From NCBI RefSeq assembly GCF_054482595.1, contig NZ_JBTHVH010000006.1: a stretch of 46,161 nt of DNA; one strand, written 5' to 3'. Positions 28,201-34,200 of this stretch are shown here, piece by piece; position 1 is the stretch's first letter, and each line of letters begins with the position of its first letter. This DNA is from a plasmid. The position numbers are program-made.

Positions 28201-31200
28201 AAGTAGCCTCACCAGGTCTTTCATAAAGGAAATATTTCGTTTGGTTGGTGGCAAAGCCGCAGGGTTCCAGCCAGTCGGCTCTCCTTCTTTCACCCGAAAG
28301 TAAGCACCTCCCATTGAACGTATACCGGGTTCCGCTGCCCGATCTTTGTCGAAAAATACTGTAGTTAACTTCTTTAATTTCCTCTCAGGTGGAAAAGACT
28401 CCGGCGTTCCGAACTGCTGGGCGGCGAAAGCCTTAGTCATCATCACTACCGTTTTACCCACGTTTGACGTACCAAGAATTTCGGTATGCCCCAGCGTGGG
28501 GTTTTTACCGAAGTAATTTTGATGCTCGGTAGTCATGTGATAGTTCAGGTTATAAATATCATTTCCTGAGCCGCCCAGGGTGATAAGGTTGTTACCCCAG
28601 GTATTTCCTTTCTCCTTGCCCGTAAAGAAATTATGGAAGCTTTCCATTTCGGCAAAGTTCAGACTGCTGATAGAACTCAGGCGTGGCCGTAACGTGTAGT
28701 TACCAGGTAACTGAGCAAAATACGCTGCGCCAAGACTCAAGGTTGAATAGGTTACGATCAGCCCTAAATCCTCCAGGGTCGTCGTTACAATATTGGTGTC
28801 CTTCACCAGACGCTCCGGCGAATCTGCGTAAACAATCAGTGTCTGGTGACTTTTCCCGAAAGAAATATAGCCGCTGGAGACCATATCGAGACCAACTTTC
28901 AAATCAGCGAGCAAGGATTTAGCGGCATCATCGGTCATTTCGAGTTTGTCGATCTGATCATCCAGCGCCTTGATTGCAGACTGCTTGTCTATCGGAGTTA
29001 AAGAGGAAGTCTGTACATACTCAACCGGGAGATACATCAGTGCATCAAAAATTCCGGCATCCGTTTCCTGAAAGTAGTCCTTGATCTCGATGCAACGAAA
29101 GTACCGGGCATGGTCAGAGGCAGTGATTTGTCCAGCATCGTTACCAAAGAACAGGTCTTTACCACCCAGGTATGTATAAAACGGACTATTGGTGACTCTG
29201 ACTTTCTGCCAGCGCCCGGATAGCAGTTTCTGGAACAGCGTAAGCTGTTCTGAATAAACTATATTATTTTCTTCATATAACCCAAGACGACGGGAATGAA
29301 ACCGGGAGAGATAGGTGCTCAATCTGCCACATATTTCATTCATATCATTAATGGGTTCTTCGAAGATATTTTTATTACCCTTTTTCCTTGAAAGAAAATG
29401 CGTCACTTTATCTTCAGCGCTGAACGGTTTATAGCATACGGTTAAGTATAATTTGTTTTCAAAATACTCAGCCGCCGAAAGCGATTCGTAATAATCGTTC
29501 ATCACTCTGTTGACGAATGGGATCTTGCTGTCAAATACAGGTCGCACTTCTTTTCTAACCCGAATACGATGCGTATAAAAGGTAACGGGTTTCCCATCAA
29601 AACTACGTATCAGCGTATTGAGCTGGTCAGTAAGCAAGGCTAGATCCGCTTCATCTACACATTCAAAATAAGCTCCGTCAATCTGCCAGGTCGCCAGTAG
29701 ATCATGGTTTCTGGTAACAATGAGGTTATCAGTGATGTGTGATGAATACGGGATTAACTCTTCAAGAGAAGACTGGTCTTTAAGCTTCATAAAATTGTCC
29801 ACTTTCGATATATCGACTGCGTCGTACGAACTCCCCGCATAATGGACGGCATTGAAGCGCTTGTTTGCCAGAGGATTACCTTTGATTTGCATTCGCAGAT
29901 AAAGCAGGTCAAAAAAGCGTTCATCTATCTTCGTAACTCGCTTGATGGCATACCAGCCAGGGAGGATGAGGGCATACATAGCCTCATGAATCCAGACACC
30001 AAGCAAAACGCAGATAACGCACATTCCAAGAAAGGGGTAGAGCGGAACGCCCAGCCCCCTAATCAAAGCGGGGCGTGTCAGCCCTTTAAAAACGGTACTC
30101 ATTTTTACGCCCCCTTTTATTACATATTACGCTAACCAGTCAGGCAGATATGGCGCAACAATAAAGATGATAATCCCGATAATTAAAGGCGTAATCCACG
30201 CTGCATGCTGGCGTGAGAAGATAGCGATATAACCAATTACCAGCGCAATGATGGTGATTGCTGGCTTACGGATATCCGTCAGAAAATCGATAATCTTCTG
30301 CAAGAAGCCAGTTGTTTTAGTGGATACATCATCAGCAAAGGCGGGTTCTGCTACACAAAGCATCAATGCAGCCATAAATACAGAAAGAGTTAAATAACGT
30401 TTATTGAGTTTTAACATCGTTTGTTTCCTTTTCATCTAAAACAGTGCCACGCATGGCATATTGGGGATATACGGTAACTTCTTTAGGTTTGATACTCTGT
30501 GTTACATTCTCCTTTCTGATTGCATCTTTAACTGAAGGAACCACCCAGTTTTTTTTGTTATCAGGCGGATTAAACCCTATGCGCTGTATATAACTGGTGT
30601 TATTAAAATCTGATTCAGGTTTAGTTCCTGTTTCTGGATTGCCGGAATAATAGCAACTCAGGCCACGTAAAATATCGCCACCACGTTTATAACAATCCAC
30701 CAAAATTTGCTCTGAAACCTTGAGATTTTCGCAGGGGTCAAACATTTTCTCAGCGGTTGTATTGAAGTTTGCAAAATTCGTACTCGTTATTTGCATAAGA
30801 CCGACTGAGTAACGATGATTTCGTGATTCAATTTGATTTACGATCTGGAGTGCAGCCTCCTTAGTTTTGGGAAAGTAGGACACTACGCCTTTGTCACCGG
30901 GCTTACGTTCAACCTTCGGTATTATCTCGGCAATAGCATATGGGTTAAAACCAGATTCAACCCTTGCAACTTCATGCGCAGTATCGGGATGAACGCTGGC
31001 CGCGCATTGCAAAGCAAGCGCCGCAAAAGCAGTAGTAGATAACATGATTTTCTCCCGGCCAGAACAGCGCGGAAAGTTTAGACTGAATGGTTAGTCATCG
31101 AAGTCGTCATCGTCTTCATCGTCTTCGTTTATCAGCTCCTCAATAGCCTGGCTGGAATATTTTTTTATGAGGTACTGGACAACACCAGAGCTTGAAATAC

Positions 31201-34200
31201 GTCGCCCCCTGCGATAGCCAATCTCCAGAGCAATTTTATCCAGTTCCTCACGAGAAGCTGAGGGCAGGTAGAGTGTATTACGTTGGGGCTTGCGTCTCGT
31301 TGCGGTTTTTTTTCGGGTAGCAGTCATTTTTCTTCCGTTTCATTTTGTGGGTTAAGCTTCTCTCTGTGATGTAGTGGATGAAAGCCATACTTCTTTGCTG
31401 CGGATTATCCATGAGTAGAATTTCAGCAAAATCGTGTGGAATTGATTTCCTTAAAAGATTTGCCTGAGCTGTTGTATGTGATTGTCTGTACAAAAGCTCC
31501 GCCATCACATCTTCTGGTACAGGTAAAGGCTCACCGCCAAATGAGATAAAGCGTTGTACGTAAGGGATAGCAGTTATTGTAGTGGAATGAACCTCTTCAA
31601 AATCTGCCTGGATAAAAAGATAACCGGGAAAAAGCGGCAAACGTCTTTCTCGATATGAAATTATCTTATCCGGGCGACGATACCTTTCAGTCTCCATAGG
31701 ACAGAAGTAAGAGAAGTTCAGGCGTTCGAGATGAGCAAAAACTGCTGCAAATCTCGTAGTGGTGAATTGCAAAACATACCATTCCATAGTTTTTCCTTTC
31801 AGGCGCTCTCTCGACTCGGATGACCCCGAATCAGAGAAAAAAAACAAAAGGACAAATTTACATCTCATAAAAACTTTATCAGCTACATGTGCTGCGTTCA
31901 ACCACACAAGCAGATCTTTAGATCGCATTTACGACACATTTCATTTTGTTTGTGCTTGTATTTTATTTATATCTAGATACATATGCTATTTGATAACAAA
32001 AAAGCAGATCGATTGATCACCATGCGCTTATTTTATAGTCAAGTTAACTAAATTTTTTACCGCTAGTTACTTTTTACAAAAACTCTGCTAACAAGATAAA
32101 TAAATCGATCTTAATCAATAAGTTACCGGAGAGTATGAATTATCCTAAACGAATTCCGATTTTCACTTTCTGTTCGCTTTGAATCATCGACTGTTTTATT
32201 TGCGAGAAATTTCTCATCTGGAGTTGCTGTTTCTTAATCATCTCCGCGCTGTTCAGCACCAGCTCTTTACTGGATGAAGAGATTCTGTCTATGCCCTTAA
32301 CCCCCAGGTTCTCTAGCTGCCACTCATTCCTGTGTGCAGTCTTCCAGCCATGCTGTACACCGTTCTTATCAAGTGCAGGGATTTTCACCTCCTTTTGTCC
32401 TAACTTCTTCAGCTTAACAAGATCACCTTTCTTAACGTTCTCGCGAGTGGTTAACTCACCAAAATCAGCCCCCCAATATGTTTTCTCCACGCCCTTGTTC
32501 AGTGTCTTAAGCTTTATGAAATGCTGCTTTGGTTTGGTTTTATCGTTCTGATAATGGTCGTAGCCAACATCAACAACCTCATAAACGCCCTTCTGTCGTT
32601 TTGGCGCTGTTTTGTGCGCATCTTTAATAGACTGGTTAAGTCCATGCTGCTGCTTATGAGTGGCTTTAACGTCATAGCCCTTCATCTTCAGCTCTTCACA
32701 AAAACCTGTACGAATTTCCCGTAAATCTTTTTTCCTGATATCAGCTCGTTTACCGTCATTATCACGAATACGAAAAACGACATGCACGTGTGGATGTTCT
32801 TTTTTGTCGTTATGATAGCCAAGCACAAAACGATGATTTGGGTACTTCTTGTTCATCGTTTTCCTGACAGACTCAAGCAGATCTTCAGGTTTTACCTTTG
32901 CTGATACAGGCGGTGAAAACACAATATTTTGGGTTACTTTTTTATTTTCCTTACCTTTATCATCGAAAACATTTTGAGGGTCATTAGCACGATCTATCAT
33001 GTGCTCTTTAGCCTCCTGAATCTCATCACCTTTCCATACCTGACCGCTTTCACTCATCACTGGCAGCTCTGACTCCCGGCTCATATAGTCAATACTGTTT
33101 CGAACTCCCTGCCGGGTAATCGCACCTCCTGAGATTTTGACAACAACCTCCTTACTGGCACCCTTGCGGTTGATACGTTCCTGAACGTTGCGTTGATAGT
33201 TTTTACCACCATTTTTAACTTTATGGGCGAAAGCAGACTTGCGGCCAGCTTCAGAGGACTTACGCTTAACCCTGAATTCCTTGTCAACATAAACGCCCAT
33301 GATTACACCTCAACCTTGTTAGAAACAGTTCGCCCTTTGCATAACATAATGTAGTTTTCAAACTCACTTTTGAGACTCATTATCTCTGAACTCAACCGCT
33401 CAGCGTCCTGATAGAACCCATCTTTATCAAGTACTCTGGCATTATCATTAACGATAATATAATGAAAGTTTCGCCCTATTTTATCTATTGCATTACGGCA
33501 ACGATTCATCACCAGAAGTTCCTGATCGAAAAAATCAAGTTCATTTTCAAGTGTCGTCTGGATTCGATAACGACATTCTCTGGATAAATTCCAGCCATGA
33601 CGATGAGCCGCTTTCTCTATTAAAGTTCTTTGTTTCCCTGTCAAATACATTGTGGTTTTGATAAAATCATCATTGTCTTTTGACACATTAACATCTTCAT
33701 TTTTAACCTTGCTTTTCAGTAAAGCATTGGCAAGCAGCTTCATTCCTTTTGCCACGGTTAAACCCGGTTCATCTGGATAAAGTGTTTTAAGACAATCAAG
33801 TAGATCATCATGTTGGCTTTCTTCAATCCTGAATTGAACTTTTTTCATAAAACTCTCCAACAAGAACCGACTGTAGGTCACCGGGCAAACGTTGCGGAAT
33901 GGCGTCAGAGACGTCATTTTGCGGCGTTTGCCCTATCCTGCATCGCAGTGAACTACCTCCACACATAAATTGTGCTTCAGCGTCCATCGAAATGCAAAAA
34001 ATGAAAGGCTATCGTGGCTGTGATCTGGTGCGTCTGCGACCGGAGACAACGGATTCGCGGCTAACTTGGGCGGAAATAAATTCGCTACGCGAATGGCCTG
34101 GCAGGGGGCGCGAGCGCTGTTTTACGGAATATACAAAAAAAGCACCTCCCGTAAACGGGAGGGCTTCGGCGATTCAGGAACGGGAATTTTATTCTGCCTC

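Follow-up and report, generated by a model that had tools for sequence, protein, structure and literature searches.

Introduction

The closest described relative of the locus considered here is prfaH of the plasmid pHNYX644, whose product, the RfaH-type NusG paralog PrfaH, was characterised genetically and structurally by Yang et al. (Commun Biol 2025; PMC11880322). Deletion of prfaH abolishes conjugation and lowers virB transcripts, and in the crystal of the truncated protein delta14-PrfaH the C-terminal domain consists of two antiparallel helices, like that of autoinhibited Escherichia coli RfaH (PMC11880322). The DNA analysed in this work, referred to throughout as the window, is a 46,161-bp IncX3 plasmid carrying blaNDM-5 (contig NZ_JBTHVH010000006.1, assembly GCF_054482595.1). 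On its minus strand the same gene, actX (synonym prfaH), is overlapped at its end by a 78-codon gene, orf78 (rs00240 of pHNYX644), and both lie ahead of virB1-virB11. This region is the regulatory head of the IncX3 virB/pilX-taxB conjugation operon. In the explanation that best accounts for this region, ActX sustains transcription of the operon by antitermination and the product of orf78 tunes the operon by binding DNA; a probability of about 85% is given to this explanation as a whole.

More distant systems frame the comparison. RfaH of E. coli is encoded by a stand-alone gene and serves several targets, whereas actX lies in cis to the only known target of its product, an operon of which it is the first gene. 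A specialised NusG paralog in first position with a second small regulatory gene directly after it is likewise described for UpxY-UpxZ of Bacteroides and TraB-TraC of IncI1 plasmids. TraY of the F plasmid, a ribbon-helix-helix protein of the relaxosome, is the product of the first gene of the traY-I operon; orf78 instead follows a NusG paralog, precedes virB1 and encodes an acidic tail.

ActX and antitermination of the conjugation operon

Both open reading frames (ORFs) were recovered by ORF calling at the position given by a first-pass annotation of the sequence (31091-31787), ahead of virB1-virB11 as placed by transferred annotation. The ActX protein begins MEWYVLQ and is labelled a NusG family protein in database records. 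An NGN domain was identified at aa 1-98 (Pfam NusG NGN, PF02357; E = 4.7e-17, 62.7 bits against a cut-off of 22.2 bits). Over aa 1-155, ActX is 100% identical to Protein Data Bank (PDB) entry 9IK0, deposited under the title 'Transcription antitermination protein RfaH', which is the delta14-PrfaH crystal from pHNYX644 (PMC11880322). Protein, ops-like sequence and position, and flanking genes are all the same as in pHNYX644, with no detectable difference, and the window represents a further copy of that backbone. Hundreds of 46,161-bp blaNDM-5 IncX3 plasmids, found in E. coli, Klebsiella, Enterobacter and Citrobacter, match the 1.2-kb region around actX and orf78 with 100% identity.

Structures of E. 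coli RfaH were matched by ActX at E = 5e-11. The two proteins align over their full length by BLASTP with 28% identity (158 aa); ActX aa 113-150 pair with RfaH 119-155 in a collinear C-terminal domain that includes the helix with the 'RSM' motif. The NGN domain and the motifs WY.L, PLFP.YLF and H.TTI are common to both. Of the RfaH core motifs that the first-pass annotation had read in ActX, WYVLQ and LFPGYLF are indeed present, whereas HTTTI is the RfaH form and ActX has HSTTI. The contact residues also differ, being T11, R12, F17, T72 and Y76 in ActX as against K10, R16, H20, T68, T72 and R73 in RfaH. A point that weighs against a full parallel is the lack of any KOW match to ActX in the Pfam scan, in contrast to the RfaH KOW domain with its switch from an alpha-hairpin to a beta-barrel; refolding and ribosome recruitment in the manner of RfaH are thus only putative for ActX.

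The first-pass annotation had proposed that processive antitermination keeps the operon transcribed and had treated this as an untested idea; it had in fact already been demonstrated on the same plasmid backbone (PMC11880322). There, actX and virB1 are carried on one transcript, PrfaH raises expression of and read-through into virB1 while leaving promoter activity unaffected, and suppression of polarity within the operon is backed by reverse transcription quantitative PCR and lacZ fusions (PMC11880322). The interpretation of ActX is thus correct and already published in detail, for the PrfaH of this very IncX3 backbone, and an antitermination mechanism can be taken as almost certain.

A role for ActX as a conventional promoter activator, rather than an elongation factor, is suggested by the historical name of the gene and its promoter-adjacent position, and other regulators, VirBR and HppX3, do act at the promoter PactX. 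Such a role is nonetheless very improbable: neither PprfaH-lacZ nor PvirB1-lacZ is affected by PrfaH, the transcribed 62-nt 5' untranslated region (UTR) is required by PrfaH even behind a foreign constitutive promoter, and the protein binds its element as single-stranded non-template DNA (PMC11880322). The NGN fold of ActX, of the same type as that of RfaH, argues in the same direction.

A divergent recruitment element in the actX leader

The element bound by RfaH, the canonical ops sequence GGCGGTAGnnTG, had been reported missing from the operon leader by the first-pass annotation, and a search of 31000-32140 for it was indeed empty; with one mismatch allowed, a single match was found in the window, at 4377-4388, against 2.08 expected by chance. 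The accompanying suggestion of a divergent recruitment site was borne out within that same interval, where the minus strand carries the ops-like element of ActX, TCGGGGTCATCCGAGTCG. In pHNYX644 the essential PrfaH site was mapped by triplet and single-base mutagenesis to positions -42 to -25 from the ATG, and binding of the purified protein to it was observed by electrophoretic mobility shift assay (PMC11880322). The window bases at 31829..31812 agree with the published numbering, T1 to G18, throughout. A scan tolerating up to three mismatches found the element once in the window (0 expected) and no further copy elsewhere on the plasmid. A short hairpin of -4.2 kcal/mol can form in its non-template strand; this energy is not significant relative to shuffled sequences, which counts against the mechanism.

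The core of the element, GGTYATCCGAGTCGA, occurs once, with its spacing to the start codon unchanged, in each of IncX5, IncX2/IncX1 and an IncF/MPF_T Salmonella plasmid, while the flanking leader sequence is divergent. The plasmids with this core also retain T11, R12 and F17 of ActX helix alpha1, residues found to be essential (PMC11880322). In the IncX1 plasmid pOU1114 (L007, 1180-1531), ActX alpha1 differs at these three positions and the leader has no ops-like core. Helix and element are therefore retained or lost together across plasmids, which provides independent support for the protein-site pair, and pOU1114 suggests a second class of ActX/site specificity within IncX. The leader of pOU1114 holds a different hairpin instead, CACAAGC...GCTTGTG. 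Across the distant NusG-paralog loci no common leader motif was obvious by eye, each having a G-rich element of its own.

The barrier ahead of virB1

Between orf78 and virB1 lies a predicted RNA stem-loop that was published as a 'potential termination signal', with mutations in it raising virB1-lacZ and removing the dependence on PrfaH (PMC11880322). Two observations weigh against reading these effects as termination alone. No intrinsic terminator was found between orf78 and virB1 by a terminator scan, the stem-loop lacking a U tract, and the stem pairs the virB1 Shine-Dalgarno sequence, so that the published lacZ effects could be partly translational. From the missing U tract and terminator, together with this pairing, we infer that the barrier before virB1 is more likely a block in translation that exposes the RNA to Rho.

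orf78 is a conserved gene

The first-pass annotation had left the overlapping 78-codon gene with its acidic tail unassigned, and the gene is indeed 'hypothetical' in database records, with no discussion of function found in the literature. The encoded protein has a basic N-terminal arm, a probable ribbon-helix-helix (RHH) core and an acidic tail ending in EDDEDDDDFDD. The gene overlaps actX by 50 nt in a different frame, an arrangement conserved in IncX1/2/3/5, and the overlap is limited to the ActX tail, whose last 14-16 residues are dispensable as judged from the delta14 truncation (PMC11880322). Partial deletion of rs00240 changed transfer by less than 12-fold (PMC11880322), and the effect of orf78 on laboratory mating is modest.

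Several RefSeq records leave the ORF unannotated, and it has no significant Pfam match, as would be the case for an open frame that spans the actX end and the intergenic sequence merely by chance. Such an origin is extremely improbable given the pattern of substitution and the spread of the family. Between IncX subgroups the ratio of nonsynonymous to synonymous substitution rates (dN/dS) is 0.03-0.12, with dN of 0.09-0.22 and saturated synonymous sites, and sequence comparison thus places orf78 under strong purifying selection. The IncX1/2/3/5 homologues (n = 19) share the invariant core RKPQRNTLYLP...YRRGRRIS.SG.VQYLIK, and a profile search of 1.84 billion representative proteins gathered 29 cluster representatives, down to approximately 21% identity, in conserved contexts. 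In the IncX5, IncX2 and IncX1 plasmids L002-L005, an intact 75-aa homologue with the 50-nt actX overlap is missing from the gene tables of PLSDB, which are known to be incomplete. Two named regulators were considered as identities for orf78 and rejected: VirBR is the 85-aa product of a separate gene upstream of taxA, at 34189-34446, and PixR, a LuxR-type protein of 97 aa, is confined to IncX4/X7, plasmids without actX.

Predicted fold of the orf78 protein

An AlphaFold2 model of the orf78 monomer has confident helices at residues 23-40 and 46-67, following an unstructured NTLYLP segment. Because RHH proteins are obligate dimers, two copies were modelled together, joined by a (GGGGS)5 linker with each alignment row duplicated likewise. 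In the linked dimer the TLY segments form strands 18-20 and 121-123, the only strands of the model, with a predicted local distance difference test score of 85-91 in the core and a predicted template modelling score of 0.60. The model thus displays a beta-alpha-alpha unit with a two-stranded antiparallel ribbon and resembles solved RHH proteins, its best fold match being F TraY in a relaxosome structure; the N-terminal domain of TraM was also matched. Two family members are natural tandem duplications, as is F TraY. The Pfam family RHH_5 was matched below threshold by 13 of 19 close members (best E = 0.011) and by six of the 24 members of a wider set (best E = 0.0027). A weak match was also obtained between the family profile and GIL01 gp7, a LexA co-repressor (E = 0.057).

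Against an RHH assignment, no Pfam family reached threshold for orf78 and no curated RHH family did so for any orf78 member, a profile search of the PDB with the family returned no RHH chain, and Foldseek with the monomer model gave no significant match. The two copies in the dimer model are forced together by the artificial linker, and L-Y-L in the strand is more hydrophobic than is usual where a ribbon reads DNA. Nor is there sequence homology to F TraY, as no orf78 member matches PF05509 (F TraY itself scores E = 3e-38) and hhalign gives the orf78 family a probability of 6.5% against F TraY and 0.4% against a 10-sequence TraY profile. Taken with these points, the models indicate that orf78 probably adopts an RHH fold.

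Genomic contexts and possible roles of orf78

The gene contexts of family members were read at twelve non-IncX loci. At nine (L008, L009, L010, L011, L013, L015, L018, L024 and L026) the member lies directly downstream of a Pfam-NusG paralog, at a distance of 0-105 nt or overlapping it. The member of L025 likewise has a NusG paralog before it, but its contig is short and shows no transfer genes. At three loci (L017, L022 and L023) the member heads a transfer operon and is not preceded by a NusG paralog; the idea that the family is always tied to such paralogs was rejected on this ground. With the exception of L025, a family member heads a transfer operon wherever the downstream genes are visible, whether VirB-like (MPF_T), F-like (traA-traL-traE; MPF_F) or I-like (DotD/TraI/TraJ; MPF_I). 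In two F-like loci the traY slot, directly 5' of traA-traL-traE, is taken by a family member (P0045 in L009, P0050 in L023); in the window, orf78 is directly 5' of virB1-virB2. The family thus resembles F TraY in its place at the start of transfer operons, with the L009 and L023 members standing before the pilin gene traA. One member alone was found in 682 plasmid records by tblastn and is a 'hypothetical protein' in the 25 matches listed.

Most non-IncX loci (L008, L010, L013, L015, L017, L018, L024, L025 and L026) have a divergent Xre-type helix-turn-helix gene (HTH_3/HTH_31) directly 5' of the pair of NusG paralog and RHH gene, likely a promoter regulator in the role held by VirBR/H-NS in IncX. 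The Salmonella salamae plasmid pCFSAN001015 (L006, 2044-3046) carries tandem NusG paralogs of 163 and 151 aa, both with a Pfam NGN domain, before a VirB operon; an IncX-type ops-like element lies 5' of the first, and an 84-aa ORF with a beta-alpha-alpha pattern precedes virB1.

The role favoured for orf78, a DNA-binding autoregulator or accessory protein similar to TraY that tunes the operon, is put forward tentatively. It is based on the modelled fold, the basic arm and loop, and the position at the head of the operon. Two conserved GATC-N4-GATC dyads in the actX leader, at 31913-31924 and 32007-32018, are its candidate operators. What weighs against this role is that the strong acidic tail belongs to the IncX members and is lacking in most of the family.

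Adjacency to NusG paralogs, common in the family but not universal, both supports and limits a different role, in which orf78 would be a dedicated partner of the paralog, either a loader or specificity factor or an anti-factor like UpxZ, forming one antitermination module with it and possibly controlling cross-talk between co-resident plasmids. Such a role would suit the 50-nt overlap with actX in IncX1/2/3/5 and the nine of twelve non-IncX members that adjoin a Pfam-NusG paralog across MPF_T, MPF_F and MPF_I. UpxY and UpxZ set a precedent in which the first two genes of an operon act in this way. A similar order is seen in IncI1, where the gene for the NusG paralog TraB comes directly before that for TraC, which is required for transfer. 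However, R64 TraC (227 aa) is unrelated to the orf78 family (hhalign probability of 0.1%), and UpxZ is likened to it by gene arrangement only. Three family members head transfer operons with no NusG paralog, the modelled fold of orf78 points to DNA binding, and ActX does not need orf78 either to restore transfer when provided by itself in trans or to bind its element in vitro (PMC11880322). A dedicated partner role is accordingly judged quite unlikely.

The structural match to F TraY in the relaxosome and to the TraM N-terminal domain, the family members in the traY slot of F-like loci, and two 110-nt inverted repeats resembling an origin of transfer (oriT) near orf78 would be expected if orf78 were an accessory of the relaxosome or coupling protein like TraY/TraM. 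In that case it would bind oriT, contact the relaxase or TaxB/VirD4 through its tail and have little role in transcription. The plasmid already encodes TaxA as an accessory protein of the relaxase, however; oriT lies approximately 2 kb from orf78, and the acidic tail is missing in most family members. Loss of TraY nearly abolishes F transfer, with which the mild phenotype of the partial rs00240 deletion contrasts. An accessory role of this kind is regarded as doubtful, and the DNA-binding tuner remains the preferred reading. The two inverted repeats (33843-33952 and 39947-40056) are 98% complementary over 110 nt, with arms 6 kb apart, one of which overlaps the start of taxA; they are probably the two copies of oriT known from R6K-type plasmids.

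Promoter, regulators and operon layout

Upstream of the element, a candidate core promoter for PactX was located by eye (Table 1). It agrees with the consensus at 8 of 12 positions, under the 9/12 cut-off of the scan, and falls in the best-conserved block of the leader alignment; judged from the sequence, transcription would start approximately 80 nt 5' of the actX ATG, 5' of the ops-like site. The box AAAAATTTAGTTAACTTGAC is the sole match in the window to the VirBR consensus VAAAHTTTVGHTAASTHVHC (PMC11214620), against 0.04 expected. HppX3, the plasmid H-NS homologue, silences PactX and the operon (PMC11915502, PMC11880322) and is displaced from PactX by VirBR (PMC11915502). Sfx, the homologous silencer of R6K, acts on elongation jointly with Rho, which fits an antiterminator rescuing a long AT-rich operon.

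Two of the three GATC-N4-GATC sites in the window are those of the 352-nt actX leader (31788-32139), against 0.58 expected in the whole window. In IncX2 the dyad corresponding to 32007-32018 has become GTTC-N4-GAAC through two symmetric changes, which preserve the dyad but not its Dam sites. No published regulator site covers either dyad, and from their sequence they could be operators for orf78 or TaxA, or Dam/SeqA sites. A third copy of GATCGAT is found in the leader at approximately 32100-32111, and a GATC-N4-GATC at 38427-38438 is located among the seven 22-bp iterons of the origin (38222-38475). There is no LexA box in the actX leader of the window. On a Serratia-type plasmid contig (L015, approximately 3360-3380), a perfect LexA box, CTGTATATCCATACAG, lies in the promoter of a NusG-paralog/RHH/VirB operon, a sequence that suggests SOS control of transfer there.

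Gene annotation was transferred from an identical plasmid (window position = 51417 - locus coordinate), and an identical plasmid record is typed as IncX3, MOBP and MPF_T. The minus-strand order is virBR, taxA, taxC (relaxase), the NusG-family gene, the hypothetical gene, virB1-virB11 and virD4/taxB, followed further along the same strand by topB and the hns homologue. After virB1, which begins 45 nt past orf78, come VirB2, VirB3/4 through VirB11, and VirD4. The first-pass estimate of roughly 14 kb for the operon is fair, as it measures approximately 12.7 kb from actX to the end of taxB/virD4 and approximately 13.5 kb to trbM.

Table 1. Features of the actX-orf78 locus and associated genes in window coordinates
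Feature	Position	Strand	Basis
actX/prfaH, 169 aa, RfaH-type NusG paralog, first gene of the operon	31278..31787	minus	ORF call, Pfam, PDB match
orf78 (rs00240 of pHNYX644), 78 aa	31091..31327	minus	ORF call
Divergent ops-like element TCGGGGTCATCCGAGTCG in the actX 5' UTR, -42..-25 from ATG	31812..31829	minus	published site located
Predicted RNA stem-loop pairing the virB1 Shine-Dalgarno GGGAG (31057-31053)	31053..31074	minus	predicted fold
Candidate PactX core promoter: TTGAAC (31901-31896), 17-nt spacer, TAAAGT (31878-31873)	31873..31901	minus	by eye
GATC-N4-GATC dyad adjoining the candidate -35 hexamer	31913..31924		conserved in IncX1/2/3/5
Second leader GATC-N4-GATC dyad	32007..32018		conserved in IncX1/2/3/5
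Box AAAAATTTAGTTAACTTGAC bound by VirBR, actX promoter region	32038..32057	minus	consensus match
virBR, 85-aa activator/counter-silencer of PactX	34189..34446	minus	translation has R20, R42, R67 as published (PMC11214620)
Operon body, virB1/pilX1 to virB11 + taxB/virD4	19098..31045	minus	transferred annotation, ORFs, Pfam SLT + TrbC/VirB2
virB1	30401-31045	minus	SLT domain
hppX3/phns, plasmid H-NS homologue	13261..13716	minus	transferred annotation

Discussion

The observations can be assembled into a control circuit in which the genetics, the element, the single-stranded DNA binding and the structure come from published work, and the Rho and ribosome-coupling steps are conjectural. Transcription of the operon starts at PactX, which is silenced by HppX3, with VirBR bound at 32038-32057 relieving the silencing. 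The non-template strand exposes TCGGGGTCATCCGAGTCG, which can form a hairpin, approximately 40 nt ahead of the actX ATG, and ActX, comprising the NGN and two-helix C-terminal domains, binds it and loads onto RNA polymerase. The ActX-bound elongation complex would then resist premature termination by Rho together with the H-NS-like silencer along the approximately 13-kb AT-rich operon, the first barrier probably lying in or close to the stem-loop, by which the ribosome-binding site of virB1 is masked. As ActX is encoded first in the operon that it rescues, the circuit feeds back positively on itself, with the promoter regulators as its gate. The orf78 protein may tune the operon by binding its own promoter region, with the dyads as candidate operators, and/or oriT.

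On ActX, the present analysis adds no more than a confirmation that the parts described in print are present unchanged in the window. blaNDM-5 travels mainly on the IncX3 backbone, which needs ActX for its transfer; both ActX and the ops-like site are already under discussion as targets for blocking conjugation (PMC11880322). For orf78, the assignment by structure and comparison draws on models and gene context and, to the extent that the literature could be searched, is new. It brings to light a conserved, often unannotated family that heads transfer operons in hundreds of plasmids of Enterobacterales and Pseudomonas. Should orf78 feed back on the operon or on ActX, the four-player model of VirBR, HppX3, ActX and Rho would be incomplete.

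A wider, speculative and on balance unlikely proposal is that an RHH protein and a NusG paralog form a conserved two-gene module for elongation control at the head of MPF_T, MPF_F and MPF_I conjugation operons, in which the RHH protein would work on the antiterminator or together with it, for instance by marking the loading site on DNA, setting plasmid specificity or feeding back on the antiterminator. If true, RfaH-like antitermination would gain a new accessory component in the RHH protein, and the TraY-like proteins of F-like plasmids may be remnants of such modules.

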